64,000 nucleotides of DNA, from IMG/VR virus record IMGVR_UViG_3300035698_012959, positions 3,404-67,403 of that record. One strand, written 5' to 3'. Positions 3,319-58,190 of this stretch are shown here, piece after piece. This DNA comes from a virus. A program made the translations under genes and the position numbers. Position 1 is the stretch's first letter. Each line of letters begins with the position of its first letter. The notes under the pieces are model-generated. The model searched no databases, was not told the origin of the DNA, and saw only the letters and a list, made by a program, of their open reading frames with translations.

Positions 3319-3340
3319 TAAATATTTATTCAAAATTTAG

Positions 3341-3357
3341 TTTCCTACGTATATTTA
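3341..3357 (+). promoter_or_regulatory. Putative promoter motif TTTC-N5-TATATTTA
   Basis: TTTC CTACG TATATTTA upstream of ORF 3380. Confidence 0.5.
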
Positions 3358-3379
3358 TATGAGAACATAACGATACGAT

Positions 3380-3628: not shown

Positions 3629-3806
3629 ACAGCAAATAGAAAAAAGATTAGAATGGTTGGATAATATCAGAACCAAACTCGAATTCCAAATAAATAGGAG
3701 AGAACCTTTTGAGGAAATTGAAAAAACTTTAAACGAATTAAAAGCAACTACAGATAAAATTAGAGAGTTTGTGGGTCTCGAAGATAGTGAAACTTACGGA
3801 GCGTAA
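3618..3806 (+). CDS. Small coiled-coil hypothetical protein
   Basis: 62 aa, heptad pattern, overlaps upstream ORF. Confidence 0.6.
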   Translation: MRYKQQIEKRLEWLDNIRTKLEFQINRREPFEEIEKTLNELKATTDKIREFVGLEDSETYGA

Positions 3807-3823
3807 AAATTAAAAAATAAGTT

Positions 3824-35461: not shown

Positions 35462-35970
35462 ATTACAATAAAAAACGATTACAAGAACTAGCTGGGATAG
35501 ACATACATGAAGGAAAACAAGTTGGCACGTTATATCATTTTACCAACTTTGAAGGTTTGAATGGGATATTATCTTCTAATTTATTGAAAGTGGGGGATGA
35601 TGCTAATTTTGAGACTGGAGGTAATATAGGAAATGTGTCATTAACTCGTGATAAAAATCTTTGGTATTTCTCCTTCCGTCTTGAATTAGATGGTGATAAA
35701 ATGTCCGATAAATACAAAATAACCCCATACCAGTGGAATGGGGGTGATCAAGAAGCAGAGGAGTATATTGAAAGAGATATATCTGATATAAGTTCATACT
35801 TACTAAGTATAACAGTTTGGGTTAATAACCCTGATGATACCATAAGTAAATCTATAATCAATCGTATAATTAAAATGTATCCTAATTTGGAATTCGTGTA
35901 TCAAGATTTTAGAGGAAAGGATTTCATCGAGTTTCCAAACCCCCAACCCACAAAATATAACATAAAATGA
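35458..35970 (+). CDS. Putative ADP-ribosyltransferase-fold protein with capsid-targeting-like leader
   Basis: RLQELAGIDIHE leader, then LYHFT...IL, VSLTRD, EAEE (H-S-E type pattern). Confidence 0.55.
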   Translation: MNYNKKRLQELAGIDIHEGKQVGTLYHFTNFEGLNGILSSNLLKVGDDANFETGGNIGNVSLTRDKNLWYFSFRLELDGDKMSDKYKITPYQWNGGDQEAEEYIERDISDISSYLLSITVWVNNPDDTISKSIINRIIKMYPNLEFVYQDFRGKDFIEFPNPQPTKYNIK

Positions 35971-37264: not shown

Positions 37265-38298
37265 TATACTCTTCTCGAAAATTCTTTTCACCTACTACGC
37301 AATTTGGTGGTACATCCAAATATCGTAGCTATTACTCTAAACAAGTATTTATTGGCAAAAGTGAAATAGTGGATATCATCTCCACTATAGAAAATTGGAT
37401 ATCAAAAAACGAAGCTAATAAAGATATTATAGGTAATAAAAAAATATATACTGGTAAATACTGTGATATACCTAGATATGTTATCAAAGATTTTATTGAC
37501 GCTAATCATTACCACAGAACATCTAAAATTCATCATGCTGATAATATTATCTCCTCAAAAGCACCCTTTATGACCATGCTAAGAGAATTAAAAATATACG
37601 AGAAAAATAAACCAACAGACTATATTGCCATACCTGACACGAAAGATAATCAAGAATTGTTATGTGGGTTAATAGTGAATCATGAACCATATGTATCTTC
37701 AAAACATCAACATCATATATTATTACCTGTAGTCGAATCTAAACATTTCCCAGATTTAATTCCTGATAATTATCATGTATTTTATAATACCAACTTATTG
37801 GACATGTTTGATTTTGTATTACAAGATAAACATGTTATATTTGATGATGAATTTAATAATATAATAGTAGAAGATAATGATTTTGATGATATGTCTTTTG
37901 AAAATTTTGAATTAATATCTAATGTAATTACAAGCAATGATGCAGATAATATATCATTAGCCATTAATTTAATGAATAACTATAATGTTGCTAAAGATAC
38001 ATTTTATATATCTACTATACTGAATTTATACTATAATAATTTATTTCGTTTAAAAGATAGTAGTAAAACAGTTAAACCTTTGAATTCAAATATAAAATCA
38101 ATAACAAATTATCTCGACACCCAAGGAATAAATTACAAAGATAGTTGGTGTATATTTATGGAAAATATATTCCCATTAGTTGGTGATGATTTATTAGATA
38201 ATTATAATTTAATACTAAATAAACTCGTAGAGGATGAATTAAGACGTAAAGGTTTAAAAATCAATTTAAATAATATTCAATTAAAACATAAGTTATGA
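37261..38298 (+). CDS. Hypothetical protein, possible BRCT-like domain
   Basis: KKIY...IPR..IK...RTSKIHHADNII; lies between AAA and VWA genes. Confidence 0.6.
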   Translation: MIYSSRKFFSPTTQFGGTSKYRSYYSKQVFIGKSEIVDIISTIENWISKNEANKDIIGNKKIYTGKYCDIPRYVIKDFIDANHYHRTSKIHHADNIISSKAPFMTMLRELKIYEKNKPTDYIAIPDTKDNQELLCGLIVNHEPYVSSKHQHHILLPVVESKHFPDLIPDNYHVFYNTNLLDMFDFVLQDKHVIFDDEFNNIIVEDNDFDDMSFENFELISNVITSNDADNISLAINLMNNYNVAKDTFYISTILNLYYNNLFRLKDSSKTVKPLNSNIKSITNYLDTQGINYKDSWCIFMENIFPLVGDDLLDNYNLILNKLVEDELRRKGLKINLNNIQLKHKL

Positions 38299-39422
38299 AT
38301 AAAGACATACATAAGCATGTAAGATTATTACTAATTAAAGAACCACTGTATGGATTATTTCTAATATCATTAATAAAGAAAACCTCACCAATCATTGACA
38401 CCGCTTGTGTTGCCATAAATGGATTGAATACTGAATTAATAATAAATAATGATTATTGGGAAAGTTTAGATAATAAATCTAAATTAGGACTACTAAAACA
38501 TGAATTGTTACATATTGTATTTTTTCATTTATTGAATATGGATCAGTATAATGATAAAACATTATATAATGTAGCTTGTGATTTGGAAGTAAACCAATAT
38601 ATATCTGATGACTATAAAGGTGATAAATGGGAGGGTATAGAAATAGATGAGGGTTTGTTTAAAGCTATGAATCTGAAATTAAAAGCCGGAGCAAGGTATT
38701 ACTATGATAAATTATCTGAACAATGTGATAAAGATAGTAATTTCAAACGATTCATTAATGGTTTAAGACCTGGTCATTCATTGTGGGTAAATACCAAAGA
38801 ATTAACAAATAAAGAACTTATAAAAAGGCAAATTAAAGGTAAATTAATAGAGTGTAGTAAAGGAATAGCCACTACACCACTAGAACTTACAGAGTTAGTG
38901 AAGGAAGAATACACACCTACAGTAGTGGATTGGAAAAGTATACTAAGGTTATTTGGTTCTTCGTCTCATATTACTTACACTAAAAAAACAAGATATAAGA
39001 GTAGTAATAGATTTAAAGATTCACCTGGATTGAGAGTGATGAAAGAGAAAAAAGTATTAGTAGCAATTGATACCTCAGGTTCTATATCTAATAATGATTT
39101 TAAAGATTTCTTTAATGAATTAATTCATATTGATAAGCTGGGTGTTAAAATAACAATATTAGAGGCTGATGTAGTTATACATAATGAGTATAAATTTAGA
39201 AAAGATAAAATGCCTGAGTTTAAAGGTAGAGGTGGCACCAATTTTGATGATGTTATGAATTATTGTAATAAAAATTCAAACCAATATACCAATCTAATAT
39301 ATTTTACTGATGGAGTAGCTCCACCCCCCACAGTAAACATAAGACAACATATATTATGGGCTCATACGAATAATCAATCATTAAATGAAGATTTACCTGG
39401 AATGAAAATTAATATTAAATGA
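38295..39422 (+). CDS. Metallopeptidase-like + VWA protein (DUF2201-like)
   Basis: LLKHELLH, NVACDLEVNQ, AIDTSGSI, GRGGTNF, YFTDG. Confidence 0.9.
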   Translation: MNKDIHKHVRLLLIKEPLYGLFLISLIKKTSPIIDTACVAINGLNTELIINNDYWESLDNKSKLGLLKHELLHIVFFHLLNMDQYNDKTLYNVACDLEVNQYISDDYKGDKWEGIEIDEGLFKAMNLKLKAGARYYYDKLSEQCDKDSNFKRFINGLRPGHSLWVNTKELTNKELIKRQIKGKLIECSKGIATTPLELTELVKEEYTPTVVDWKSILRLFGSSSHITYTKKTRYKSSNRFKDSPGLRVMKEKKVLVAIDTSGSISNNDFKDFFNELIHIDKLGVKITILEADVVIHNEYKFRKDKMPEFKGRGGTNFDDVMNYCNKNSNQYTNLIYFTDGVAPPPTVNIRQHILWAHTNNQSLNEDLPGMKINIK

Positions 39423-40158: not shown

Positions 40159-40755
40159 ATGAAATTAACAAAAATAATCAAAACTGTTCTCCAAGAGTAT
40201 AACCCACAACGAGAAAAAGAACGTGAATCTCCATCCCCCGAGGTACATCCTGATACAAAACCACTAGAACGTCCAACCAGAAGACGTACACTAACCCCTC
40301 CTACAGAAGCTCCACGCACTAAACCTAAAGCAGAAAATTTTGAAGACAAAATTTCTAGCAGATATTCTGACATGAAAGATAAAAGCAGAATGCAAGAATT
40401 AGCAGGTATGCCACGGGATGAAAGGGGTCAATTTGATGATGAGGAATACCGAGATGAAGAAGCAGATGAACGTAAATACTGGGGTGTCGGTGATGATGAT
40501 ATAATGGAAAATGAAGAATTCGAAGATAACTACTCACATCTAAGTGATACTGATATTATAGAGTGGGCTAATGATAATGATCTGGATTATGACTTAGATT
40601 TCGATGGTAATTTAATAGACAGGCAAGGAATATTAGATACTATATTAGGATTGACGGGGGAGTATGACGATGATGAATATGGTGATTATGAAGAAGACCC
40701 ATTTATGGATGATTTTGACCCGGCAGGAGGCAGAGGTTTGAGCTCTTACATCTAA
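40159..40755 (+). CDS. Acidic low-complexity putative internal head protein
   Basis: MKLTKIIKTVLQE leader, Pro/Arg block, RMQELAGM, Asp/Glu-rich tail. Confidence 0.7.
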   Translation: MKLTKIIKTVLQEYNPQREKERESPSPEVHPDTKPLERPTRRRTLTPPTEAPRTKPKAENFEDKISSRYSDMKDKSRMQELAGMPRDERGQFDDEEYRDEEADERKYWGVGDDDIMENEEFEDNYSHLSDTDIIEWANDNDLDYDLDFDGNLIDRQGILDTILGLTGEYDDDEYGDYEEDPFMDDFDPAGGRGLSSYI

Positions 40756-40797: not shown

Positions 40798-42219
40798 ATG
40801 AAATATAAAGATATATTTTCAGATCAAACACTAGCCAAATTAAATAGACAATCAGCCGATAATTTAAAAAAAGTACTCAAAGGTAAAACGTTAATGCAGT
40901 CAATGCATGGTGCTCACGGGGTGTTACAACAAATAATACAAATTGAGAGGCCCCACTTAGAAGAACTAGAAATATTAGCCCAAAATATTTTAAGGGGAAT
41001 ATATCCTATCATTGAGGATAATGATATAACACTAGATGTTCAAATTACCGACGATGTTTCTATAAACGAAATAAAATTAAATAAACGTGTAGATTTTACG
41101 GTAGAATATTGGTATAGATATAGAGGAGAAAAAGAAACTGATACTATCACAGTAAAAGCGACAGATGAAAAAGACGCTATCAAAATAGCTAAAAAACAAG
41201 CTCCCAAAAACTCAATCCCTAGTAGTTTTTCAATTTCAAAATCATTAAATGAATCTAATGATGAAACAACAAGAAGAGTAATAAACGGCATAACACAAGG
41301 AGCGGCATTAAGGAACACGTTTGCATTCTATATGTTTAAGGAACATTTAGATAAAATAGACCCAACATTAGTAGATAAATATAAAGCATTAATGGATGAT
41401 GTATTTGGTATTTATGATGATGATAATGCTATTGCAATGTTTTTAGCAGCTATATCAACAGGTCAAGAAACAGGAGGGGGGTATAGTAAAGTTACTATAA
41501 ATGAAATAAAATTACGTGAACCTGGTAATATAATCGAAAAGTTAAAATACCATTATGGTAAATTTAATGCTATTTTTAGTAAAAATATAAGGAAATTATA
41601 CCAGCTCGAAGATGATTTTATGACTATAGTTGCCCAACACGTTCCTTCATATTCTGAATATGGACTATCGTGGGACGCCGATGGGTATGGAGATGGGATA
41701 TTTGAGGAAGATAACTTTATAAGGGAATTAGAGGTATTATATGTAGAGTTAGAAGCTGAATATAATAAAATTAATAATTTAGATGATTTGAATGAAGATG
41801 ACTCATCATCTGGGGGTGTTACTATAACAGCAAGAGGAGTTTGTTTTCCTATATTATTACATGAAATGATTAAGGGATTATACGAATTAATATCATTACA
41901 TGGTTTTAAAGGTGACAAAGAACAAAATCAACAAGTTGTTGATAAAGTAGATAAGTTAGAAAATGAGCCTGAAGATTTAAGGTACGGAAAGTACATATAC
42001 GATGCTATAAACACATTATATATAAATAGTGATTATGATGATCCAAGAATGAGAGAATATTTCCTTCAAGAGATATATGGGTTAGATAATGATGTGTTTT
42101 TTGAGTTTGTGGATAATTTAATTAATGAGATATTAGATAGTAAACAAAAGGAATGGATCGCTAGGACTTTTAAAGAAATTTTCTTAGATTTACGAAATGA
42201 TAATATTGACAATTTATAA
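40798..42219 (+). CDS. Putative head protein carrying two xNE-flanked inserted cassettes
   Basis: Core RRVINGITQGAA ... FPILLHEMIKG; inserts 41071-41253 and 41506-41796. Confidence 0.7.
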   Translation: MKYKDIFSDQTLAKLNRQSADNLKKVLKGKTLMQSMHGAHGVLQQIIQIERPHLEELEILAQNILRGIYPIIEDNDITLDVQITDDVSINEIKLNKRVDFTVEYWYRYRGEKETDTITVKATDEKDAIKIAKKQAPKNSIPSSFSISKSLNESNDETTRRVINGITQGAALRNTFAFYMFKEHLDKIDPTLVDKYKALMDDVFGIYDDDNAIAMFLAAISTGQETGGGYSKVTINEIKLREPGNIIEKLKYHYGKFNAIFSKNIRKLYQLEDDFMTIVAQHVPSYSEYGLSWDADGYGDGIFEEDNFIRELEVLYVELEAEYNKINNLDDLNEDDSSSGGVTITARGVCFPILLHEMIKGLYELISLHGFKGDKEQNQQVVDKVDKLENEPEDLRYGKYIYDAINTLYINSDYDDPRMREYFLQEIYGLDNDVFFEFVDNLINEILDSKQKEWIARTFKEIFLDLRNDNIDNL

Positions 42220-44199
42220 ATGAAAAAATATCTTTTACTAGAATACACAGACAAAACTGTAAATGCTATATTAAAACAATGGAAAGAAGATACCCCCAAT
42301 CTTAATACAGAATCTGCCTTAAGTTTAATACAAAATTTTGAAAGAATCAAAAGTGGTCTTAAAGACCATTTAGAAACATATAGTTTTCCTGATAAACCTG
42401 GTTTCTTGGATACAAACAGGCAACCATTTACTGATATATTCAAATATACAGCTTCTGAAGTAGCTACTCTTATAAGATCTATACCTGAAAGTAAGAAGAA
42501 AATAATAAAAGCAGCAGCAAAAAGATTTAAGCAAAAATTTCATACTGAACATGGCGCCGCTATATCTTATATAAGTCGATTTCTTGCTAATAAAGCTAAA
42601 ATCGAAATGGGGTTTGAGAAAGGTTTAGAAAGGGATGGTTTTAGTAAAGAAGCATTTTTGGAATACATACCTAATAATTTATATAGGAATGGTATGTATT
42701 TAGATCCTAGATATTGGGATTGGAATGATTTTGAAACATTACTTGATGCTGTTTTTCCTGAAGTTGAAGAGGAGGAAGAAGGAGCTGCTGAAGATGGAGA
42801 AAATCTAGCTATGTTGAATGGTGATTTGATATATGATAAAAATAATTTAGAAATATATAGTGTTAGTGATGTTGAAAAATGCATTAAGTACAAACCAGTA
42901 GTTTCAGGTGATAATCCTATTAATTGGTGTATATCAGCTAAAGGTAACACTCAATATGATTATAGAAGACTAAATGATGAAGCTCCAACATTCTTTATGG
43001 TAGCTGATAGAGATCAGGATTCTAGTCTAGGTAAAGATAGATTTGAGAATCCGTTTCACGCTTGGGTATTACAAGTAACTAATAAGGAAACATATTTAAT
43101 AACAAATGCTGATAATCGTAGAGATTTACGAGTAGATAGTTGGGAGGAAATAAATACAGTAGTAGATCCAAGAACATGGAATAAAATAAAAGGTTTAAAA
43201 GATGTATTTAAACACAAGCCTTTGGATGATATTGAATTATTCAGGAAAATGTATGCAAATAAACCATTAACTTTAGGTGATTTTAAAGCACTAGATATAG
43301 ATAATAAAAAGTTATATATACTCGCTAAAGGAGGGAAAAATGAAATCCCCGAACCAATATTAAGAATACTTCCTTTAATAAAAGTCAAGGAAGATGGAAG
43401 ATCTACAAATGCTGCTGAATTAGCTATGAAAACTGGACAAATGTTTACATGGGAATTATTACAAGATTCCCCAAAACTAGCTGAAAGGTATACTGTTATT
43501 AGATTTAGACATGGTACAGGTAATGGAAAGTTAGTTCCATTAAAATTCGTTCAATACCTTGATGATAGTGGTAAAACAGAATATATTAAACTATTTGAAG
43601 ATTATATAAGTTGTAAATATATTGAGGAGTATTTCGGGGAAAAACATTTATTAGAATACATCAACAATAAAGCCAAGAATTTAGAATTTGTTGAGAGTGG
43701 TTATACCCATCTTATAAAAAACCCAAAACTAAGACAAATACAGGAAGCAGTTTCTGAGTTATCTAGAAATTGGTATACATCTAAATCTTTTGATATGTCA
43801 CGTGAAAAATTAGAACAATTAACATTACCACCAGAACTAGTGTGGTTTGATGAAAAGTACCTTTATGATGACTTTATGAAGTTAGATAGTAAAACTATCA
43901 ATGATATAATATCTGTATCTGAATTTACAGCTAGAGATATCAAAAAATATAATGAATTTAATTACATGGTTCCCTTACTAATTAAAGATGGTAAAGGTAG
44001 CTACAATTTCTTATTGCCAAAACCATCTAAAAGTTATTATCATGATGATTGGATATTAGTAGATAAAAATAAAAAAACAGTACAAGATAATATAAATGGT
44101 AATACATCAACATTTAATAATACCCAATTATCTTCTGGTTATAAACCAGGTGAGGTAAGGATTTTAGAACCTAAAAATTTAAAGTTAGTAGAAAAATAA
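42220..44199 (+). CDS. Large hypothetical protein with WCIS motif, putative head/ejection protein
   Basis: MKKYLLLE leader; NWCISAKG..YDY.R (PcfJ-like pattern). Confidence 0.65.
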   Translation: MKKYLLLEYTDKTVNAILKQWKEDTPNLNTESALSLIQNFERIKSGLKDHLETYSFPDKPGFLDTNRQPFTDIFKYTASEVATLIRSIPESKKKIIKAAAKRFKQKFHTEHGAAISYISRFLANKAKIEMGFEKGLERDGFSKEAFLEYIPNNLYRNGMYLDPRYWDWNDFETLLDAVFPEVEEEEEGAAEDGENLAMLNGDLIYDKNNLEIYSVSDVEKCIKYKPVVSGDNPINWCISAKGNTQYDYRRLNDEAPTFFMVADRDQDSSLGKDRFENPFHAWVLQVTNKETYLITNADNRRDLRVDSWEEINTVVDPRTWNKIKGLKDVFKHKPLDDIELFRKMYANKPLTLGDFKALDIDNKKLYILAKGGKNEIPEPILRILPLIKVKEDGRSTNAAELAMKTGQMFTWELLQDSPKLAERYTVIRFRHGTGNGKLVPLKFVQYLDDSGKTEYIKLFEDYISCKYIEEYFGEKHLLEYINNKAKNLEFVESGYTHLIKNPKLRQIQEAVSELSRNWYTSKSFDMSREKLEQLTLPPELVWFDEKYLYDDFMKLDSKTINDIISVSEFTARDIKKYNEFNYMVPLLIKDGKGSYNFLLPKPSKSYYHDDWILVDKNKKTVQDNINGNTSTFNNTQLSSGYKPGEVRILEPKNLKLVEK

Positions 44200-46447: not shown

Positions 46448-49204
46448 ATGAGTACTCCTTTCGATTATAAACAAGTAATAAGATTAGAATACGCAAAATG
46501 TGCGAGTGACCCAGTTCACTTCATGAGAAAATTTTGTATGATTCAACATCCTACTAAAAGTAGGATATTATTTAATCTATATCCATTCCAAGAAAGTGTA
46601 TTAAACCAATTTATTGTAAAGAATAATAATATTATTCTTAAATCAAGACAACTCGGGATATCAACTTTAGTAGCTGGTTATTCTTTATGGTTGATGTTAT
46701 TCAATACAGACAAAAACATTTTATGTGTTGCTACTAAGCAAGATACAGCTAAAAACATGGTTACGAAAGTAACATTCATGTATGATAATTTACCATCATG
46801 GTTAAAAGGTAAGAAAAAACCTCTAGAGAATAACAAATTATCTCTAAAATTAACTAACGGGTCATTAATTAAAGCAGTTTCAGCCGCCGCAGATGCAGGT
46901 AGATCAGAAGCCGTATCATTTTTAATTATTGACGAAGCCGCATTTATCGAAAATATAGAAACTATATACGGTGCGGCTCAACAAACTCTAAGTACCGGTG
47001 GTGGTTGTGTTGTATTATCAACTCCTAACGGTAGTGGTAATTGGTTTCACAAACAATATACTAAAGCTACTAACGGAGAAAATTCATTTAACCCATTAAG
47101 ACTACCATGGACCGTTCATCCCGAAAGAAGCGAAGGTTGGAGAAAAATACAGGAAGACGATTTAGGTACCAGATTGGCCGCTCAAGAGTGTTTTAGTGGG
47201 GATACTATAATATATACTATAAATGGACCTAAATTTATAAAAGATATTGAGATAGGAAATAAAGTATTGAGTCATGATGGTACATATAATAATGTTATAA
47301 AAACCATGAGTCATATTACTAATAAAGCTGTAGAAATAAAAGGAGGTTTAAATAATATAAGCAAGTATACTACATTAAACCACCCTTTCCTAAATACACA
47401 TAACGAATGGGAAGATGTAGAATCAATAATATCTACTAATAATAAGGTAATATTATTTCCTGTCGATGTAAAATATAATAATTCTTATAGTACAATAGAT
47501 CTAAAAAATCATATAATATCTAATAATCCAAAATATTTTCCACTAAAATATAATGATGAAAGTATATGGTTAACAAAAACCAATATCCTTAATAGAAACA
47601 TAAAATTTGATTATGATTTAGGATTTTTAGTTGGATGTTTCCTGTCAGAGGGTTCTTTAGCTAATAATAAGGTGGAGTTTTCATTTAATGGTAAAACAGA
47701 AAGAGATGGCTTTCCCATACAAATAGAAAATATATTAAATAGTAAATTTAATATAAATAAATTCTCATATTACACTTCCAAAATATGGTCTGGTAGTAGT
47801 AAATTGTATATAAAGGATCAAATATTCCATAATTTCATAAAATTATGCATACAGGGGGGTAGTTTATGTCACCAAAAATCCCTAAGTGAATTCTTCTATG
47901 ATAATGCCAATTTAGAAACTTTAAGAGGTATTATGGATGGTGTGTTAGTTGGGGATGGGATGTTGAAAGATGAATATAATATAAGCCTTTTATTGACCTC
48001 AAGGAAATTGATATATGATATACTTTATATAAGTAATTTATTAGGTATACATAATGTTACTATAAAAGAAGGTAAATCAATAAATCCCAGAGATTCTTCT
48101 ATTTACAAACCTAATTATACTTTAACATGGTTAAAAACTAAAACAAATTCCCAATCAAAAATATTTAGCGATAGAACTAAAAATATAGTATTTAATCAAA
48201 AATCTTCTAACAAATTCATATTTGATGTTAACCCCAATGTTAGTTTAAAAATAAACCCCACCCAACATAACATTACAGTATTTAATTTAGAAGTAGAAAA
48301 CACCCACACATATACAACAGAATATGGGGTTGTGCATAATTGTGATTGTGACTTTTCCTCATCTGGTGATACATTACTAAATAAAGATACAATAAAATAT
48401 TATGAAGATAATATTATGGAACCCGTTGAACGAAGGGGAATAAATAGTAATTATTGGATATTTCGCAGAGCAAGAAATGATAAAGATTATGCCGTAATAG
48501 TTGATACTTCTAGAGGAGACAGCAATGATTATTCTACAGTCCAAGTAATAGATATAGAAAACATGGAACAAGTTGCTGAACTTAAAGACATGATTTCCCC
48601 TAAAGATTTAGGAAACTTGATTGTTGCCATAGCTTCTGAATATAATGATGCCCTTCTGATAGTAGAAAACAATAATATGGGTTATCAAACTGTTACTACA
48701 GCAATTGATAGAGGTTATAAAAATGTATATTATTCTCCCAAAAACGATCAAATAACTGCGGATCAATGGATTAATAAGATGCAAAATCAAGACCAACTAA
48801 CTCCAGGATTCAATACTTCAGTTAAGACAAGACCTTTAATAATAGAAAAGTTCAGAGAATTTATGGATAATAAAGTATTCATTATTAATTCAAGAAGAAC
48901 TGTAGATGAAACTAAAACATTTATTTGGAAAAATCACAAAGCCCAAGCCCAATCAGGGTACAATGATGATTTAATAATACCATTAGGTATAGTTGCTTAT
49001 TTACGAGATACTGCTTTAAGATTCAAAAAAAATAATCTTGAATTAACTAAAATTTCAATAGCTAACATAACTAATATTAATGATAATAACCCACAGTCTG
49101 TACCTAACATCCCTAATGACAGTAGACGACCTAATCTATACACACCAAATCCTTATAAAATGATGGTAGGAGGTAAAGTAGAAGATATTAGTTGGCTACT
49201 CTGA
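46448..49204 (+). CDS. terL: Terminase large subunit (T4 gp17-like) with intein
   Basis: LYPFQ, LKSRQLGIST, IIDEAAFI, STPNG, VDTSRG..DYS, VENN, YNDDL. Confidence 0.97.
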   Translation: MSTPFDYKQVIRLEYAKCASDPVHFMRKFCMIQHPTKSRILFNLYPFQESVLNQFIVKNNNIILKSRQLGISTLVAGYSLWLMLFNTDKNILCVATKQDTAKNMVTKVTFMYDNLPSWLKGKKKPLENNKLSLKLTNGSLIKAVSAAADAGRSEAVSFLIIDEAAFIENIETIYGAAQQTLSTGGGCVVLSTPNGSGNWFHKQYTKATNGENSFNPLRLPWTVHPERSEGWRKIQEDDLGTRLAAQECFSGDTIIYTINGPKFIKDIEIGNKVLSHDGTYNNVIKTMSHITNKAVEIKGGLNNISKYTTLNHPFLNTHNEWEDVESIISTNNKVILFPVDVKYNNSYSTIDLKNHIISNNPKYFPLKYNDESIWLTKTNILNRNIKFDYDLGFLVGCFLSEGSLANNKVEFSFNGKTERDGFPIQIENILNSKFNINKFSYYTSKIWSGSSKLYIKDQIFHNFIKLCIQGGSLCHQKSLSEFFYDNANLETLRGIMDGVLVGDGMLKDEYNISLLLTSRKLIYDILYISNLLGIHNVTIKEGKSINPRDSSIYKPNYTLTWLKTKTNSQSKIFSDRTKNIVFNQKSSNKFIFDVNPNVSLKINPTQHNITVFNLEVENTHTYTTEYGVVHNCDCDFSSSGDTLLNKDTIKYYEDNIMEPVERRGINSNYWIFRRARNDKDYAVIVDTSRGDSNDYSTVQVIDIENMEQVAELKDMISPKDLGNLIVAIASEYNDALLIVENNNMGYQTVTTAIDRGYKNVYYSPKNDQITADQWINKMQNQDQLTPGFNTSVKTRPLIIEKFREFMDNKVFIINSRRTVDETKTFIWKNHKAQAQSGYNDDLIIPLGIVAYLRDTALRFKKNNLELTKISIANITNINDNNPQSVPNIPNDSRRPNLYTPNPYKMMVGGKVEDISWLL
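47189..48340 (+). mobile_element. Intein (384 aa) with LAGLIDADG homing endonuclease
   Basis: AQE|CFSGDT...TLNHPF...VGCFLSEG...IMDGVLVGDG...VFNLEV...VVHN|CDCDF. Confidence 0.95.
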
Positions 49205-49239: not shown

Positions 49240-51135
49240 ATGGCTGTTGACACTAGTATTTTTGGGCAGTTGAAACGTTTGTTTTCAACTGATGTTATAA
49301 TTCGTAATGTAGGGGGTAATAAGTTAAAGGTTGTTGATACTGAACGTATTCAGTCTTATGGAAATGTCAAGACAAATTCATTAGTAGACAGATATAACAG
49401 AATTCATATGGGTAGTAATAGGAATGCCTATACCCCAACAATGAATTACCAAACCTTAAGAAATCAATTATATACTGATTATGAAGGGATGGATCAAGAC
49501 CCTATTTTAGCTTCTGCATTAGATATAATAGCGGATGAATGTACATTAAAAAATGAGCAAGGTGAAATTTTAGCAATAAATTCACCTAATGAAAATATAC
49601 AGCAAGTATTATATAATTTATTTTATGATGTTTTAAATATCGAATTTAATTTATGGTCTTGGATTAGAACTATGTGTAAGTATGGTGATGCTTATCTTTA
49701 CATGGAGATAGCAGAGAAGTTTGGTATAATAAATGTATTACCAGTATCAAGTTATGATGTCATAAGACAAGAAGGGCAAGATCCAGAACGACCATCATAT
49801 GTATCATTTAAAGTTGGTGAAGATGGCTCTAGATATGCTTTAGGTTATGCCGGAGGTATAAATAGAGATATAGAAAATTATGAAATGGCCCATTTCAGAT
49901 TATTATCTGATTATAACTACCTTCCTTATGGCCGTTCATACATGGAACCCGCACGTAAAGTATTTAAGCAACTTTCATTAATGGAAGATGCTATGCTAGT
50001 TCATAGAGTAATGAGAGCTCCAGAAAAAAGGATTTATTACGTAGATGTAGGTTCTATACCTCCAAACGAAGTAGATGCTTACATGGAGAAAATAAAAAAT
50101 AATATTAAAAAAACTCCATATATTGATCCAGAAACTGGAGATTATAACCTCAAATATAACATGCAAAGTGTTAATGAGGATTTTTATATACCTAGAAGGG
50201 GAAATAATGATGGTGGTACACAAATTGATACTTTAAAAGGATTAGAATATAATGCCATCGAAGATGTTGAGTATCTAAGAGATAAAATGTTGTCATCATT
50301 AAAAATCCCAAAAGCATTTTTTGGTTATGAAAAAGATCTAGAAGGAAAAGCAACTTTAGCCGCCGAAGATATTAGATTCGCTAGAACAATTGAGAGAATA
50401 CAAAGAATTGTAACAAGTGAATTACATAAAATAGCATTAGTTCATTTATACACACAAGGATTTGATGATGAGCAATTAGTTGATTTTGAACTAACACTAC
50501 ATTCTCCTTCCATCATATATGAACAAGAAAAAGTAGCATTATTAAAAGAAAAGACCGCATTAGCCATTGACATGGTTGATTCTAATTTATTCCCATCTGA
50601 TTGGGTATATGATAATGTATTTAACTTAAGTGAAGATAAATTAAATAGTTTAAGACAATTAGTTGTCGAGGATAAAAAACGTTCTTTCAGATTAAACCAA
50701 TTAGAAAATGAAGGTAACGATCCAGCGGCAAGTGGTACATCATACGGTACACCCCATGACTTAGCCGCGCTTTATGGTAGAGGGAGAATGGCTAAAGGTG
50801 ATGTTCCTTCAGGATATGACGAAAAAGAAACTGCAGGTAGGCCTAAAGAAAGAGCTTCTTCATATGATACCCAAAACTCTAACTTAGGTAAAGATGTAAT
50901 GGGAAGCGATGCTTTAGGAGATAAAATCCCCCATTCCATAAAAACATCTTACAAAGGTAAAACCCCATTATCTATAAGTGAAGGAAAACATATTTATCAT
51001 AGAGATGTAGATATATATAACAATGATACTGATGAATCGGAAGATTTTGAAGAAGAAGATATTTATGATGATGGAGATATTGATGAAAATTATGAGTCTG
51101 CGTTACTGAATGAATCCATGATAATTAAAGAATGA
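49240..51135 (+). CDS. Portal protein (T4 gp20-like)
   Basis: ALDIIADE, LMEDAMLVHRVMRAPEKRIYYVDVG, EDFYIPRR, IDTLKG, LKIPK, EDIRF. Confidence 0.96.
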   Translation: MAVDTSIFGQLKRLFSTDVIIRNVGGNKLKVVDTERIQSYGNVKTNSLVDRYNRIHMGSNRNAYTPTMNYQTLRNQLYTDYEGMDQDPILASALDIIADECTLKNEQGEILAINSPNENIQQVLYNLFYDVLNIEFNLWSWIRTMCKYGDAYLYMEIAEKFGIINVLPVSSYDVIRQEGQDPERPSYVSFKVGEDGSRYALGYAGGINRDIENYEMAHFRLLSDYNYLPYGRSYMEPARKVFKQLSLMEDAMLVHRVMRAPEKRIYYVDVGSIPPNEVDAYMEKIKNNIKKTPYIDPETGDYNLKYNMQSVNEDFYIPRRGNNDGGTQIDTLKGLEYNAIEDVEYLRDKMLSSLKIPKAFFGYEKDLEGKATLAAEDIRFARTIERIQRIVTSELHKIALVHLYTQGFDDEQLVDFELTLHSPSIIYEQEKVALLKEKTALAIDMVDSNLFPSDWVYDNVFNLSEDKLNSLRQLVVEDKKRSFRLNQLENEGNDPAASGTSYGTPHDLAALYGRGRMAKGDVPSGYDEKETAGRPKERASSYDTQNSNLGKDVMGSDALGDKIPHSIKTSYKGKTPLSISEGKHIYHRDVDIYNNDTDESEDFEEEDIYDDGDIDENYESALLNESMIIKE

Positions 51136-51980
51136 ATATAAAGCACAATAAACTAAAAAATACAGGTATATTATATGAATTGTTAATTAACCAATTAACA
51201 TCAGATGTATTCCACGATAAAGATTCAAAAGTAATATCTATTATAAAAGAGTTTTATAGTAATACTGAAATATCTAAAGAATATAAGCTGTATAAAACTA
51301 TATTAACATCCCAGTATGATAATGTAGGTAAAGCAAATAATGTGTTAGAAGCTATTAATGAAACTCATACAAAAATAAACAAGAAAAAATTAAAACAAGA
51401 AAAATACCGTTTAATTAATGAAATAAAATCTAATTATGATATCAAAGATTTTTTTAGACATAAAATCCCAAATTATAAAGTGCATGCCTCTATATATAAT
51501 TTGTTAGAATTTAACTCTACAGTAGATTTTATATCCCCACAATTCGTCATTAATAATAAAATAACATTACTAGAATATATAACAAATATTAATAGTAATG
51601 AGGATATAAAAGACGATACATTAAATGAATTTAAAAATACTGAAAAAGGTACACGTTTATTGATATACCAATCTTTAGTTGATAAATTTAATACAAAATA
51701 CACTAGTCTGTCAGAAGGGCAAAAAGGTATATTAAGTCAATACATTAATAATATGAATAATCCTCTATTATTGAAAGAATGTATAAATAACCACATTAAG
51801 AATATTAAAAGAAAATTAAAATCATGTGTAGTAAATAATAATGTTATTAAGATTAAATTGGAAGAGATAAACAGAATATTGATTCCTTTAGGGAAAGGTG
51901 ACTATGTCAAAGATGACGATTTTATAAATATACTACAATATTATGAGTTAATTAAAGAAATCAAATTAATAAGCGAATGA
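51132..51980 (+). CDS. Conserved head-region hypothetical protein
   Basis: IKHNKLKNTGILYELL, EKYRLINEIK, FNTKY..L. Confidence 0.75.
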   Translation: MNIKHNKLKNTGILYELLINQLTSDVFHDKDSKVISIIKEFYSNTEISKEYKLYKTILTSQYDNVGKANNVLEAINETHTKINKKKLKQEKYRLINEIKSNYDIKDFFRHKIPNYKVHASIYNLLEFNSTVDFISPQFVINNKITLLEYITNINSNEDIKDDTLNEFKNTEKGTRLLIYQSLVDKFNTKYTSLSEGQKGILSQYINNMNNPLLLKECINNHIKNIKRKLKSCVVNNNVIKIKLEEINRILIPLGKGDYVKDDDFINILQYYELIKEIKLISE

Positions 51981-53137
51981 AAAGGTCTCAACTTAGTGAA
52001 TTGATAAATGGGAAATTGAAAGAAATGAATGCCACTTCGGGTGGGGAAGCTTATGCTCCCCCTCTAGGTAAAAAAGTGGATGAAATTAAATTAAGAGAAC
52101 CAGGTGCTTCACATATAATTCGTGATCCGCATAGAATATCAACTTTACCTAAACTTAATTTAACAATAGGAAAGTATAATGTTTCTAAAGACAAAGTTGG
52201 ATTACAGGTACCTTTTGGTACTGTAACTAAAATGACATTAAACAGAGCTAGAAACGTATTTGACAAATTAGGTATTACTATTGAAAAAGCATTTTTAGGT
52301 TGGTTGGTAAGATCACATGAATATACGAATGATGATGGGGAAGTGAAAAAAAATTTCTATGTAAATATACGTACAACTTATTTATTATCTACTTACAAAA
52401 ATAAACCTGTAATGTTTGTTCAAAATCAAACTTCATCTAATCTAGCAGGGCAGGCATATTTGTATAGTGAATATTTTAAATCCGGTAAATCATTAAGATT
52501 AAAACCAGACAATCCACCAAAAATCCACACACACCATAGCGGGGCCTCAACTAGTAAGTACCAATGGCAAGATAGTAGTGATGTAAAAGCAGATGATGCC
52601 ACCACAAGTAAAGAAATGATTTTAAGAGCATTAAAATACGATCAATTAAGTGAAGTTAAATTAAGAGAACCTGGAGTGTTAGCTAGTTACAAAGAAGAAG
52701 CAATAGCTGATTTAACAGATTTAAAACAATCATATTTTGACGTTAACGATAATGACGACAATTATAATAAAGCCGTAAGTTACATACGAGGTGCAAAGGA
52801 TGAAATGGAATTAAGTCGAAGATTGGAAAGAGTATTTAAAGACCCAAGTGTTTTAGATGATATTAAATATAGAATAAATAATGACGGTGGTACATTAAAT
52901 GAAATATCTACTCGCAAATTTAACAAACGAATATCAAGAGTAAGTCCATTAAGTAAAGTTAATAGATCTATTAGTGAAATTAGTAAAAGATTAAAAGAAA
53001 TTAATTCAGTGATAGGACACACTTCAAAATTAATGAATGAATCTGGGAGTGGTAATAGTAGAACTAAAGAAAAAATTGCTAAATTATTAGTCGATATCAC
53101 AAACACAAGAACTAATTTAAGAAATTTAATGAAATGA
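51977..53137 (+). CDS. Putative head protein carrying two tandem E|[IV]KLREPG cassettes
   Basis: MKRSQL leader, cassettes 52085-52654 and 52655-52903, basic coiled-coil C-terminus. Confidence 0.7.
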   Translation: MKRSQLSELINGKLKEMNATSGGEAYAPPLGKKVDEIKLREPGASHIIRDPHRISTLPKLNLTIGKYNVSKDKVGLQVPFGTVTKMTLNRARNVFDKLGITIEKAFLGWLVRSHEYTNDDGEVKKNFYVNIRTTYLLSTYKNKPVMFVQNQTSSNLAGQAYLYSEYFKSGKSLRLKPDNPPKIHTHHSGASTSKYQWQDSSDVKADDATTSKEMILRALKYDQLSEVKLREPGVLASYKEEAIADLTDLKQSYFDVNDNDDNYNKAVSYIRGAKDEMELSRRLERVFKDPSVLDDIKYRINNDGGTLNEISTRKFNKRISRVSPLSKVNRSISEISKRLKEINSVIGHTSKLMNESGSGNSRTKEKIAKLLVDITNTRTNLRNLMK

Positions 53138-53757
53138 TAAAACTATCAAATATATTAAAAGAAATCAGATTAAGAGAACCCAAAAATCATGCTTATGTGT
53201 CTATGGATGATGTAAAACTAGGTATGGAATTTCTAATACATGATATGGAAAATTACTTATCTAATTCTAAAAATGATTTCACAGAAATACCACCTGATGA
53301 AATGGGGTATGTTATTATTAATGAATTTTATGATTTGATAGTGTTCCATATTAAAGAACATTTAAAAAATAACGATAATGAGATTTATTTCGATATAGAA
53401 AGTAATAAAGATATTTATGAGTATCTAACAAATATTGAAGGTAGTGATATAATACAAATTATTATAGATGAATTAATTGTTCCTGCGGGATATAAATTAA
53501 TAACACCACAAAACACTAAATATTTTATAGGAAGTTTTATAGATCGAAATAAATCTACTGGAACCGAATTCATCAATCAAACTCACATTAGTGATCCAAG
53601 TTTATGGAAAGAATATATAAAAGATGGAAATGGATTCGATGATTTTTTAGATTTAATTGATTTTAATATAGATAAAATAATTAATGGCCTTAATGAAGGA
53701 GATATAAATAGTATTTTAGTAAATGAATTGGGATTACCAGTAGAAGAATTTAATTAA
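53134..53757 (+). CDS. Hypothetical, putative internal head protein
   Basis: MIKLSNILKE|IRLREPK. Confidence 0.7.
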   Translation: MIKLSNILKEIRLREPKNHAYVSMDDVKLGMEFLIHDMENYLSNSKNDFTEIPPDEMGYVIINEFYDLIVFHIKEHLKNNDNEIYFDIESNKDIYEYLTNIEGSDIIQIIIDELIVPAGYKLITPQNTKYFIGSFIDRNKSTGTEFINQTHISDPSLWKEYIKDGNGFDDFLDLIDFNIDKIINGLNEGDINSILVNELGLPVEEFN

Positions 53758-54619: not shown

Positions 54620-55249
54620 ATGAAACAACTATTAGTAGATACTATATTATTTGAAGTAGAACCAAGCGTTATTAATGAAAATATTAAAAATGGTGGTACA
54701 TTAACTGTTAAAGGTCCAATACAAAAAGCGGAGACTAAAAACGGTAATGGTCGGGTATACTCTAGAGAAATATTAAATAGAGAATTCAAAAAATATAACG
54801 AAGGTCCCATTAAAGAAAGTAGATCAACAGGTGAGTTGGATCACCCCGATTCACCTGTTATTAACTTAAAGAATGTATCACATATCATACGTAATATATG
54901 GTGGGATGGTGATACTGTTATGGGGGAAATAGAAGTATTAACTACACCTTCAGGTAATATATTAAAAGAATTAATTAAATGTGGGGTAAAAGTAGGAGTA
55001 TCATCTCGAGGTATGGGTTCTGTTAAACAAATAGGTGAAACCGTTGAAGTACAAGAAGATTTTGAACTATTATGTATTGATTTTGTCTCAACACCTTCCA
55101 CTCCGGGAGCTTACATGGATTCCATAAATGAATCATTAAATTTATCAACACCTCCTGTAGAATCATTATATACTAATATTGATAATTTAATAACCGAAAT
55201 ATTGTGTAATCGCATAGGATATTGTCCTTGCGATTTACCTACTAATTAA
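54620..55249 (+). CDS. Prohead core protease (T4 gp21-like)
   Basis: NGNGRVY, GELDHP, NVSH, GVSSRGMGS, DFVSTPS. Confidence 0.95.
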   Translation: MKQLLVDTILFEVEPSVINENIKNGGTLTVKGPIQKAETKNGNGRVYSREILNREFKKYNEGPIKESRSTGELDHPDSPVINLKNVSHIIRNIWWDGDTVMGEIEVLTTPSGNILKELIKCGVKVGVSSRGMGSVKQIGETVEVQEDFELLCIDFVSTPSTPGAYMDSINESLNLSTPPVESLYTNIDNLITEILCNRIGYCPCDLPTN

Positions 55250-55441: not shown

Positions 55442-56566
55442 ATGATAAAAAAGAAAAACAAAACTAATGATCTTTTAAAAGAAGCAATTGCTGACGCTCA
55501 AAGAATCAAACAAACAGCATTAGAAAATGCTAAAATGGTAATAGAAGAAAGCCTATCACCAAAAATCAAAAAAATCCTTTCAGAAAAACTGAATGAGATG
55601 GCAGATGATGATCTTGATGAAGGTATGTATGATTCCGATGAAGATTTAGACATTGATGAAATTCTTAGAGAATTAGAAGAAGATGATCTTAATGAAAATG
55701 AAGATTTAGACGAAGCCGCTGGTGATGATGAAGATAAACCAAAGCCAAAAGCAAAACCTAAAACTGACGATAAACCAAAACCAAAACCAAAGGCCAAGCC
55801 GAAATCAGAAGATGATGACGATGATGACGAGGATGATGATGAAGGATTCGGTGATGATGACGATGATGATCTAGGTGTTGAAGATGATATGTCTGACGGT
55901 GATGGTGATTTAGGTGGTGAAGAGCAAGACGTTAAAGATATGAGTGCATCTGAATTATCAGAGTTAATTACATCAATTATACAAGGTGTAATGGGGACCG
56001 GTGAGGAAGATGGATTAGGTGGAAGTGATATTGGACCTATTGGAGCCGAAGATGGATTAGATTCAGGTAGGGATGATATTGGATTTGGTGATGATATGGA
56101 AGGTGAAGAAGACGATATTGACATTAGTGAAGATGAGTATGGAATTGAAGAAGACGAAGATGATATGGTTTACGAATCATTGAAACAAATTAATAAATTA
56201 CGTGAAGAGTTAAAAGAAACTAATTTATTAAATTCTAAATTACTATACATGAATAAGGTGTTTGCAGGTCAACAATTAAATGAGCAAGAAAAGATTGGTG
56301 TGATGAAAGCATTTGATAAAGCTGATTCAGTAAAGGAAGCAAAATTAATCTTTGAAACTATTCAAACTAGACCAAAAAGAAAAGAAACAGCAAATTCTAG
56401 AAATAGAAAAACAAAGTATAGAAGCACAGCAGGAAAAAGACAGATTAGAGAAGTTAAAGGCAGTGCTTCAAGCGTATTAGGTGGAAGTATGAGAAAACCA
56501 ATCGTTAAAGTTAACGAAACAGTTGCCAGATGGCAGAAATTGGCAGGATTAGATACATCAAAATAA
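55442..56566 (+). CDS. Prohead scaffold/core protein
   Basis: Between protease and capsid genes; LLKEAIADA, highly acidic middle, LLNSKLLY, C-terminal RWQKLAGL. Confidence 0.85.
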   Translation: MIKKKNKTNDLLKEAIADAQRIKQTALENAKMVIEESLSPKIKKILSEKLNEMADDDLDEGMYDSDEDLDIDEILRELEEDDLNENEDLDEAAGDDEDKPKPKAKPKTDDKPKPKPKAKPKSEDDDDDDEDDDEGFGDDDDDDLGVEDDMSDGDGDLGGEEQDVKDMSASELSELITSIIQGVMGTGEEDGLGGSDIGPIGAEDGLDSGRDDIGFGDDMEGEEDDIDISEDEYGIEEDEDDMVYESLKQINKLREELKETNLLNSKLLYMNKVFAGQQLNEQEKIGVMKAFDKADSVKEAKLIFETIQTRPKRKETANSRNRKTKYRSTAGKRQIREVKGSASSVLGGSMRKPIVKVNETVARWQKLAGLDTSK

Positions 56567-56594: not shown

Positions 56595-58190
56595 ATGAAT
56601 TTAAAAACACTTTTAGAAAGTTCAAACCAAGAATTAGTAGCCAGTAAAAAGGAATCTAATGCACTTGTGAACAAATGGATATCTAGTGGATTACTAGAAG
56701 GTTTTTCTAATGATCATGATAGAAATAACATGGCCGTTATATTAGAAAACCAAACAAAAAGACTACTTAACGAAGCCAACGTAACAGGTGGTACAAGTAG
56801 CATGAATGGTGGAAACGGAGAGAATTGGGCAGGAGTAGCATTACCATTAGTACGAAGAGTATTTGGTGAGATAGTTGCAAAGGATTTCCTTTCAGTACAA
56901 CCAATGTCATTACCTGCAGGTCTAGTATTTTACCTAGATTTTAAGTATGGATCAACTAAATCTGGTAATACAGCTGGTGATTCATTATATGGTAACCAAG
57001 CTACTAATCACCCAAATGTTCAAGGGTTAGATGTAGATGGTGGATTGTATGGAGAGGGTAAATTTGGATATTCTCTAAATTTATCAAGTGGAAGTGCTTC
57101 ACCTTCAGCAACATCTTCAGCTACGTGGAGTGATATTAATCATGATACTACATTCGACACAGCTAGTTTTAGCGTGATTAGTGTACCAACTAGCTCAATG
57201 ACCAGTTTAGATACTGATGTAATTAGAGCAATTACAGTAAGTTCAGCATCTGTACAGTACCCAGTAATGCAACAATTTACAAAATTGTCTGGTGGTAATA
57301 TTAATATAGTTATAAAAGCTACTGATATTGTAGATGCAAACACAGGATCATGGGTTGCTTTATATCCTAAAGCGACTTCTATGGAAAATAGAGGAGATTT
57401 TGAAGATAGAACAGGAGATGATTTATCAATCCCATCTATTGATGTTAAACTAAAATCTGAAGCAATTGTTGCAAAAACTAGAAAGTTAAAAGCACAATGG
57501 ACACCGGAATTTAGTCAAGATTTAAATGCATACCACAACATTGATGGTGAAGCTGAATTAACAAGTATGTTAAGTAATTATATCGCTCTTGAAGTTGATT
57601 TAGAATTACTAGATATGTTAAAGAATGATGCGGCAACAACAGGTTATTGGTCAGCAGTTAATAACGAACAATGGAATGGAGTAGATGGCTTTACTCAAAC
57701 TACAGCAACCACAGGTGGTTTTTATAATACTCAAGGTGGATGGTTTTCTACATTAGGAACTGTGTTTCAACAAGTATCAAATAAGATACACCAAAAAACA
57801 CTGAAAGGTGGAGCGAGTTTCGCAGTAGTTTCTCCAGCAGTAGCAACAATTCTAGAATCAATTCCCGGATTTGCGGCTGATGGTGATGGTGAAAAAGCAG
57901 AATTTAATTTAGGTATATCTAAAATGGGTTCATTAAATAGTAGGTATAAGGTTTATAAAAATCCATACCAAACATCTAATGAAATATTAATGGGATACAA
58001 AGGCGGACAATTCCTAGATACAGGAGCTGTTTATGCACCGTATATTCCCTTAATGATGACTCCATTAGTTTATGATCCTATCAACTTTACACCTAGAAAA
58101 GGTTTGCTTACTAGATATGCTAAGAAGATGGTAAGACCTGAATTTTATGGTAAAATATATGTTAAAGGATTAGAATCGTTAGGATATTAA
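56595..58190 (+). CDS. Major capsid protein (T4 gp23-like)
   Basis: LPLVRRVF, VQPMSLPAGLVFYLDF, AKTRKLKAQWTPE..QDL.AYH, YAPYIPL, FTPRKG..TRYA. Confidence 0.97.
   Translation: MNLKTLLESSNQELVASKKESNALVNKWISSGLLEGFSNDHDRNNMAVILENQTKRLLNEANVTGGTSSMNGGNGENWAGVALPLVRRVFGEIVAKDFLSVQPMSLPAGLVFYLDFKYGSTKSGNTAGDSLYGNQATNHPNVQGLDVDGGLYGEGKFGYSLNLSSGSASPSATSSATWSDINHDTTFDTASFSVISVPTSSMTSLDTDVIRAITVSSASVQYPVMQQFTKLSGGNINIVIKATDIVDANTGSWVALYPKATSMENRGDFEDRTGDDLSIPSIDVKLKSEAIVAKTRKLKAQWTPEFSQDLNAYHNIDGEAELTSMLSNYIALEVDLELLDMLKNDAATTGYWSAVNNEQWNGVDGFTQTTATTGGFYNTQGGWFSTLGTVFQQVSNKIHQKTLKGGASFAVVSPAVATILESIPGFAADGDGEKAEFNLGISKMGSLNSRYKVYKNPYQTSNEILMGYKGGQFLDTGAVYAPYIPLMMTPLVYDPINFTPRKGLLTRYAKKMVRPEFYGKIYVKGLESLGY

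Follow-up and report, generated by a model that had tools for sequence, protein, structure and literature searches.

A short peptide recurs at the head of otherwise unrelated protein segments in a 64-kb stretch of viral DNA (hereafter the window), which comprises positions 3,404–67,403 of the 67.4-kb IMG/VR virus contig IMGVR_UViG_3300035698_012959. Judged by comparison with related phage sequences, the copies of this tag, E-[IV]-[KR]-L-R-E-P-[GK], represent the form taken in this phage by a composite junction found across its clade, [LIV]-x-E followed by [IV]-[KR]-[IVL]-x-x-P. The window itself reads as the head module (portal, protease, scaffold and capsid genes) of a T4-type phage that is AT-rich and only distantly related to T4, and we consider it fairly probable that a gp21-type protease frees the tagged modules inside the head, with the tag supplying the primed side of a cut site that can move from module to module.

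Scanning the window in all six frames recovered four strict copies of the tag, all on the plus strand and all within long open reading frames (ORFs, named here by their first coordinate), and no occurrence of the L-R-E-P core outside these four copies in any frame. The peptides reported in an earlier note on this DNA, VDEIKLREPG (52076–52105), LSEVKLREPG (52646–52675), LKEIRLREPK (53155–53184) and INEIKLREPG (41497–41526), were retranslated identically. Counted from the Glu onwards, copy 1 (E-I-K-L-R-E-P-G after K-V-D) occupies 52082–52105 and copy 2 (E-V-K-L-R-E-P-G after Q-L-S) 52652–52675, copy 3 lies at the L-K-E joint of ORF 53134 (53161–53184), and copy 4 lies inside ORF 40798 (41503–41526). 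Two degenerate tags on the same strand add to those of the earlier note: S-I-N-E-I-K-L-N-K-R at 41068 (site 1 of ORF 40798), and E-V-R-I-L-E-P-K at 44152–44175, eight residues before the stop of the ORF at 42220–44199, with seven residues after the tag.

Once the tag is removed, the segments behind it are mutually non-homologous (best all-pairs BLASTP E-value 0.14), which bears out the earlier claim that the tag heads unrelated segments, and DNA similarity between copies stops at the tag (12–21 nt). Chance or recent local duplication would draw on the AT-rich, low-complexity composition of the genome and on nothing else; its probability is negligible, given that composition predicts 1.4 × 10−5 strict copies (65 plus-strand ORFs of at least 70 residues in the contig; 20,178 residues), that the flanks are unrelated in both protein and DNA, and that more than 100 copies exist in relatives. 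Both findings that the earlier note had named as fatal to its proposal are thus absent: the motif extends beyond these copies with no recent duplication behind it, and the downstream domains are non-homologous.

In the relatives, the tag and the residues in front of it behave as a composite. The family of ORF 40798 comprises 174 homologs, 120 of them listed, with a core of ~338 residues and lengths of up to 827 residues. Of the 120 listed homologs, 46 contain the skeleton E-[IV]-[KRTSQ]-[IVL]-x-x-P, with 103 copies between them, compared to 1.1 on average and never more than 4 in 200 residue shuffles. The residue two positions before the Glu (P3, where the Glu is P1) is Leu or Ile in 96 of the 103 copies, the Glu itself being present in all by construction of the pattern, and the consensus reads [LI]-[DN]-E then I-K-[IV]-N-[KN]-P. 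When [IV]-[KRQT]-[IV]-N-x-P cores were collected from ten tag-rich loci without requiring the Glu, E preceded 80 of 82 and P3 was L, I, M or V in 73 of 82; the tag and [LI]-x-E therefore form one unit. T4 gp21 cuts after L/I-X-E, as stated in a passage of PMC9026906, and an invariant Glu with Leu or Ile two residues earlier thus fits the known rule of the S77 protease family. The cleavage before the tag that the earlier note assumed is supported to the extent that the tag follows a site fitting the T4-type rule (Glu at P1, Leu or Ile at P3), the P3 residues at the window copies being I, L, L and V.

The junction is also found well beyond this carrier family. A complete relative (G001; 175,065 bases, CheckV 100%, 28% G+C) has 26 coding-strand copies, spread over 15 ORFs that include both of those directly upstream of its protease. 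Among 80 viral loci gathered by the carrier family, eight carry at least two tags and most others none (a conserved portal motif that also fits the pattern was removed from this count by eye). A DNA pattern written for one common flavor of the tag matched 69 stretches; 20 of these (on 13 contigs) carry at least two in-frame tags, all 20 at 25–31% G+C, and 23 have no in-frame tag and are chance matches. The window's own flavor, searched as a degenerate DNA pattern, matched no stretch in the viral contigs of a collection that may omit the window's own record.

What is conserved in this junction is the peptide. The synonymous differences quoted in the earlier note (TTA CGT GAA CCT as opposed to TTA AGA GAA followed by CCA, CCT or CCC) are real, and its view that the motif is kept as peptide and not as DNA is confirmed, since codons within the tags vary with genome bias. 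The window copies use ATT, GTT, ATC and ATA, AGA or CGT, and CCA, CCT, CCC and CCT at the respective positions. Across 20 tags of G001 taken with a P3-restricted pattern, Ile is written as ATA (11), ATT (7) or ATC (2) and Pro as CCA (9), CCT (7), CCG (2) or CCC (2), and the shares of the Ile, Pro, Glu, Lys and Asn codons equal those of the genome as a whole. With codon use in the tags at genome background, selection therefore acts on the peptide and nothing further is conserved.

These codon counts bear directly on a further explanation, namely that the tag is a recombination junction, a short DNA homology for cassette swaps that has no peptide function and owes its conserved look to copying. 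The recurrence of one cargo across several carriers, the vacant joints and truncated tags resembling excision scars (described below), the greater likeness of tags within than between genomes and the 12–21 identical bases common to the window copies would all suit such a junction. However, the codon bias of a 28% G+C genome by itself leaves 12–21 identical bases between copies, synonymous sites are as free as that bias permits (AGA/CGT, CCA/CCT/CCC and ATT/ATC/ATA in the window; four Pro and three Ile codons in G001), and the residues are kept across phages whose carriers share only ~40–50% identity. We regard this explanation as highly improbable. On the microhomology that the earlier note proposed as an added role of the tag, the codon counts weigh neither way.

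Each lineage has its own flavor of the tag, a possibility that the earlier note had raised. After removal of four loci that duplicate others, tag identity averaged 0.76 within genomes and 0.55 between them, a gap reached in none of 3000 label permutations; with the window left out the values were 0.76 and 0.60, again with none of 3000 permutations reaching the difference. Flavors include I-Q-I-N-K-P in L013, V-K-I-N-N-P in L007 and K at position +4 in L005, and L-R-E at +3 to +5 is peculiar to the window among these. This variation by lineage, set against a P3–P1 rule that stays constant, is what would be expected if the tag were instead a signal on the mature cargo: once exposed, an I-K-[IVL]-x-x-P N-terminus would retain the module, guide its exit via portal and tail, or set its stability in the host, and would co-evolve with a phage-specific receptor. 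Presumed cut sites that have no tag (in the capsid protein and at cassette ends) would likewise mean that cutting does not require it, some ORFs open with M-N-E and then the tag, leaving no room for a targeting leader, and freed modules of 58–100 residues might otherwise escape as scaffold fragments do; in T4 such fragments leave the head, according to a section of PMC9026906. Weighed on the other side, the 80 of 82 cores that follow E fit a single recognition unit equally well, no partner of the tag is known, and the four-residue stubs at carrier C-termini have no cargo to signal for. We therefore hold a signaling role for the tag on mature cargo to be possible but unlikely.

ORF 51977 (51977–53137, plus strand, 386 residues) illustrates how tagged modules are arranged. 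The earlier note described two tandem tagged cassettes of 190 and 83 residues in this ORF, the second closed by L-N-E, and our analysis agrees. Cassette 1 (residues 37–226; 52085–52654) consists of the tag and an alpha/beta cargo domain, ends in L-S-E, and is modeled by AlphaFold2 (AF2) with a predicted local distance difference test (pLDDT) score above 90 over approximately residues 51–180. Cassette 2 (residues 227–309; 52655–52903) is helical in the AF2 model and closed by T-L-N-E. The remainder (residues 1–36 and 310–386) has a counterpart of 73 residues in Flavobacterium phage immuto, and in the relatives P0136–P0139 (117–128 residues) the base N- and C-terminal parts are joined directly at L-N-E. 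A cassette related to cassette 2 occurs alone in one base-protein relative (P0128), and another tagged cassette occurs in a second. From these cassette-free and single-cassette relatives, ORF 51977 is read as a small base protein, in a head-core position, that two cassettes interrupt precisely at its L-N-E joint. In the AF2 model, the joints at residues 24–46, 225–233 and 303–310 are of low confidence and lie between confidently folded parts; pLDDT is below 50 at the two tag-bearing joints (residues 24–46 at copy 1 and 225–233 at copy 2) and likewise at the L-N-E joint.

ORF 40798 (40798–42219, plus strand, 473 residues) is, by family comparison, a carrier that hosts two cassettes, at residues 92–152 (the degenerate tag with its E at 41068) and 237–333 (tag copy 4), both closed by L-N-E. 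AF2 gives pLDDT below 50 at all four of its joints (residues 87–98, 146–152, 235–243 and 326–339), and in the model they fit exposed linkers. Across the 103 proteins of this family compared at site 1, 23 have an insertion there, and 21 of the 23 open with the tag directly after S-L-D-E. All 23 site-1 insertions and all 17 site-2 insertions hold [LI]-x-E within their last 12 residues, compared to 14% of random 12-residue windows. Carriers free of insertions read L-N-E or L-D-E-N-I-N-E at the same joint, and some carriers stop after a four-residue stub of the tag (L-D-E-I-K-[VI]-K then stop); these empty joints and stubs look like empty docking sites or excision scars. L-D-E-N-I-N-E (in P0003, P0007, P0008, P0017 and others) consists of the left and right joints back to back. 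A comparable case is the ORF at 42220–44199, whose homologs in L002, L003 and L007 bear one or two tagged C-terminal cassettes and which in the window keeps the degenerate tag only, so that the tag at 44152 looks like a docking site without cargo. In L003 and L007, a short ORF starting M-K-[RK]-S-E-L stands directly upstream of the carrier gene.

ORF 53134 (53134–53757, plus strand, 207 residues) presents another arrangement, with a 10-residue leader, M-I-K-L-x-N-I-L-K-E, followed by tag copy 3 and an orphan cargo. A protein search limited to proteins of near-equal length returned only its self-match. Among the four strict copies in the window, only this one follows a short leader, the other three being internal. 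In relatives, leaders of the M-I-x-L-x-x-I-L-x-E type head cassette-1 homologs and other small ORFs, with or without the tag, and N-terminal leaders of 9–18 residues end in the same [LI]-x-E rule; some ORFs open with M-N-E and then the tag. Phage immuto has a recurrent N-terminal leader of its own, ~25 residues long and ending L-K-E, on three unrelated ORFs (2736–4036 and 10346–10573 of L001, the immuto locus), and in certain relatives (P0121 and P0123; L013) tags stand behind a leader of this type.

The tagged modules thus fall into three arrangements. Some stand behind short leaders, some are inserted where a conserved carrier already had an [LI]-x-E joint, and some are chained in polyproteins, of which a 1615-residue ORF with eight tags is an example. 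Homologs of the cassette-1 domain number 37 representative proteins of 98–1967 residues (a count that includes matches to the base part), and the cassette itself has homologs at various places in proteins of 122–1967 residues. The domain follows tags or leaders at positions 16, 172, 265, 482, 548 and 777 of proteins of 275–1967 residues, also stands behind 10-residue leaders, and in P0022 is fused to the C-terminus of a protein of the ORF 40798 family. With at least six other protein contexts for this one domain in other phages, the cassette shuffling anticipated in the earlier note is substantiated. A small Cys-rich C-terminal module likewise recurs as a cassette, on P0005, P0006, P0007, P0012, P0016, P0051 and P0075; it starts C-W-D-[GD]-Y-K-K and ends P-K-W-K-A-R-[YF]-W-S-C-K, not always with both, and sometimes has a tag in front.

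Two other accounts of the inserts were considered and set aside. An intein or other self-splicing element was rejected in view of the unrelatedness of the inserts and the lack of any Pfam match in the tagged window ORFs. Ribosome skipping of the 2A type, whose consensus requires Gly-Pro after Asn-Pro, was also rejected: only 24 of the 103 tags have Gly after the Pro, and Pro is then not among the six commonest residues.

Searches for the identity of the modules yielded little. Pfam found no family in the four tagged ORFs of the window, and none of the domains characteristic of biological conflict was detected there by Pfam, which divergent domains may escape. PHROGs, searched with the carriers and base proteins, gave one match to a 'helicase loader' (E 0.0066), judged spurious, and otherwise nothing. 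A tblastn search of ORF 51977 against 50,697 phage records gave zero matches, and a peptide-pattern scan of viral contigs with the same ORF gave four pattern matches, none of which was confirmed. Structure searches with Foldseek and VIA used whole-ORF models. Foldseek found nothing in the PDB at E ≤ 0.001 for the AF2 models of ORF 51977 and ORF 40798, and a wide VIA search with the ORF 51977 model matched only its C-terminal helical hairpin to generic coiled coils (Z ~9, in the common range), so that the cargo domain was barely probed. When cassette 1 and ORF 53134 were looked up in the ESM Atlas, features led to nothing usable, and by structure the template modeling score stayed below 0.4. 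No cargo or carrier was identified through these fold searches. Among eight tagged proteins of relatives, Pfam reported only a NUDIX domain, in P0122, and a sub-threshold tail-chaperone match. The NUDIX hydrolase domain of P0122 (7e-14, residues 137–259) stands directly before a tag and a cassette-1 domain and is the sole cargo-side enzyme identified. The P0122 C-terminus also repeats a Pro/Lys/Thr-rich stretch (R-R-T-L-[TS]-P-P..A-P..T-K-P-K-A) of the window ORF at 40159–40755.

The setting of the tagged ORFs points to the phage head. G+C content ranges from 24 to 38% across the window in 2-kb steps, and almost all long ORFs lie on one strand. The genes run in the order terminase large subunit, gp20-type portal, four ORFs (282, 386, 207 and 280 residues), protease, scaffold and capsid. 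The portal gene (49240–51135) matches PHROG 213 at 5e-63; the prohead protease, of T4 gp21 type and the proposed cutter (54620–55249), matches Pfam PF03420 Peptidase_S77 at 1e-28 (100.6 bits compared to a cut-off of 27) and PHROG 207 at 4e-55; an acidic protein in the scaffold position, with R-W-Q-K-L-A-G-L at its C-terminus, is encoded at 55442–56566; and the gp23-type major capsid protein (56595–58190) matches PHROG 138 at 1e-67 and is 54.7% identical to the immuto capsid protein. All four genes are on the plus strand. The capsid protein matches 2,464 phage records, for the most part T4-like, and immuto has the same gene order from portal through capsid. Three of the four strict tag copies fall in the two middle ORFs of the four between portal and protease, a position that in T4 we take to be that of core genes 67 and 68. 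The products gp67 and gp68 of T4 are head core proteins, as noted in part of PMC9026906. An S77 protease gene is present in the window and in all five tag-bearing relatives searched for it.

Two neighboring regions also drew our attention. The ORF of the terminase large subunit (46448–49204) encodes 918 residues, compared to 473–536 in the relatives L002, L003 and L007, and Pfam covers only residues 42–234. Read by eye, its extra middle part starts with Cys and ends His-Asn-Cys, an intein-like appearance; Pfam reported no intein family in this ORF at E ≤ 0.001. Just upstream of the tagged carriers lies a block at 36098–39422, made up of an AAA_5 ATPase (36098–37264), one further ORF and, at 38295–39422, a DUF2201_N metallopeptidase that also has a VWA-like domain, and ORFs resembling this block stand in the same place in L002, L003 and L007 (N-termini judged by eye).

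This metallopeptidase is a candidate for an alternative in which the head protease does not act on the joint, which would be cut by another enzyme or would stay uncut as a flexible linker or docking strand. The gene of this zincin-type peptidase (Pfam DUF2201_N, 1.3e-10) precedes ORF 40798 by 1.4 kb, metallopeptidase domains are the presumed processors of polyvalent phage proteins (as far as the text of PMC5512222 consulted goes), and cleavage by the S77 protease is itself proposed from a sequence pattern. Against another enzyme or an uncut joint, the invariant Glu with Leu or Ile two residues before it is the S77-family rule, tagged ORFs adjoin the S77 gene both in the window and in G001, and the leaders of 9–18 residues, whose ends obey that rule too, look like propeptides that could be removed. 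Taken together, these points make the alternative improbable in our judgment.

We therefore favor release by the head protease. A leader or carrier would bring the module into the prohead core, the S77 protease would cut after the Glu at each joint, and each module would be released into the head interior, its N-terminus now formed by the tag. As an extended, unstructured strand ended by Pro, this peptide would form a primed-side half of the cut site that is independent of the fold of the cargo, and any module placed behind it would still be released.

Several points weigh against this proposal. What we infer about cutting and packaging comes from family membership and from the pattern. The tag appears dispensable for cutting in general: the capsid N-termini compared conserve a candidate cut site, L-N-E|A, near residue 60 without a tag, and cassette C-terminal ends lack it too. 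Copy 1 has Val at P3 in place of Leu or Ile, and the window tag itself holds L-R-E, which also fits the rule and makes the exact cut position ambiguous. The M-N-E leader is too short to target anything, a hint that the tag may do more than serve the protease. Relatives exist that lack the tag, among them immuto and 74 of the 120 listed ORF 40798 homologs, and the Pfam, fold and ESM Atlas searches assigned no function to the cargo in the window. A co-fold of the protease with residues 1–40 of ORF 53134 scored 0.00, compared to a mark of 0.34, and, being made without controls, weighs neither way.

A second short motif links the tagged ORFs to the scaffold. R-[LM]-Q-[QE]-L-A-G-I occurs nine times in G001, eight times directly before a tag and once as the C-terminal end of the scaffold-position protein. 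Scaffolding-protein C-termini bind coat protein. Should they do so here, L-A-G-I-type leaders would dock cargo to the shell in the manner of the scaffold, and the L-A-G motif may be a capsid-docking peptide copied from it. In the window (56531–56563), as in G001 and immuto, the scaffold-position protein terminates in the more permissive R-[LMW]-Q-[EKQ]-L-A-G-[ILM]. Elsewhere in the window it stands at the N-terminus of ORF 35458 (35479), at the C-terminus of ORF 39484 (39880) and inside ORF 40159 (40390). In ORF 35458 (35458–35970, 170 residues) the L-A-G-I leader is followed by I-H-E, and Pfam gives a weak match to the ADP-ribosyltransferase family Tox-ART-HYD1 (E 8.3e-5; 23.6 bits, cut-off 25). 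To judge from this match, ORF 35458 may correspond to Alt of T4, an enzyme that is packaged in the head and acts on the bacterial host.

Head-packed proteins that are injected with the genome are first-strike weapons against host defenses, and they are hard to recognize in uncultured phages because they share no fold. A motif tied to the head-protease rule would mark such cargo in sequence, at four to six sites in the 67-kb contig and 26 in the complete relative. Repertoires of cargo could then evolve by insertion of modules at pre-existing cut sites of head proteins, leaving behind empty sites and stubs. Engineers wishing to load foreign proteins into capsids would find a tag usable at N-termini, within carriers and along chains easier to handle than the T4 capsid targeting sequence (CTS). 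It is conceivable, albeit doubtful, that the junction goes further and acts as a plug-and-play head address, by which any module with [LI]-x-E and the tag, whether behind a leader, at a carrier joint or in a polyprotein, would be loaded, freed and delivered. The retained tag would then be a second, phage-specific signal for head retention or for exit by portal and tail, its lineage-specific flavors would arise because it co-evolves with a receptor, and modules would spread by tag-to-tag recombination. If so, every injected protein of an uncultured phage could be recognized by the tag with no more than sequence in hand.

Among known systems, the closest likeness is to the internal proteins of T4 (IPI, IPII, IPIII and Alt), whose CTS is cut by gp21. 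Each system combines a T4-type head module and an S77 protease with unrelated small proteins whose sole common feature is a short conserved peptide beside an L/I-x-E site. The variable internal-protein genes of T-even phages were reportedly first studied by Repoila et al. in 1994. Homology among T-even internal proteins does not extend beyond the leader, and all three T4 internal proteins block type IV restriction enzymes (PMC12373910). The 10-residue leader of ORF 53134, ending L-K-E, has the length of a CTS as given in a passage of PMC9026906, and is likened to it by length and end motif. The conserved element of T4, however, precedes the cut and is discarded, whereas the tag comes directly behind the Glu and would be retained by the mature protein; moreover, tags also occur inside proteins, several per ORF, at insertion points of conserved carriers. 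By the T4 definition the tag is hence no CTS, but the leaders in front of it may be.

A second comparison is with the inner-body and ejection proteins of the giant phages phiKZ, 201phi2-1 and SPN3US, head proteins that gp21-like proteases cut after Glu at a short motif (according to a portion of PMC9026906). Their propeptides are removed and the proteins are packed with DNA and ejected, as described in sections of PMC9026906, PMC5694885, PMC7411985 and PMC10052503. Their sites, in the words of one passage of PMC9026906, have 'extremely few other cleavage determinants', whereas here six more residues are conserved after the cut; conservation on the primed side is uncommon among the sites of gp21-type proteases, described in the same passage as having very few determinants. 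The giant phages also have paralogous families where swappable cassettes are found here. Polyvalent proteins (Iyer et al. 2017; PMC5512222, in the portion consulted) offer a third likeness, being multi-module proteins encoded beside virion genes and thought to be packaged and processed. They are defined by 2–15 distinct domains beside virion genes, a description that ORF 51977 (two modules and a base), the eight-tag 1615-residue relative and the head-module context all match, and the NUDIX domain of the tagged relative P0122 is a further point in common. They differ in that Pfam finds no metallopeptidase domain inside the tagged proteins, and in that the joints here have a defined tag matching the head-protease rule. 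In open-access text we found no description of the tag or of the L-A-G-I leader; string matches to either were lobster neuropeptides and a plant synaptotagmin, both unrelated, and the literature there on polyproteins, prohead proteases and ejection proteins concerned only giant phages and T4. The feature itself is real and statistically well founded and, with the mechanism as we infer it, the system represents a variation on the internal-protein and CTS theme of T4.

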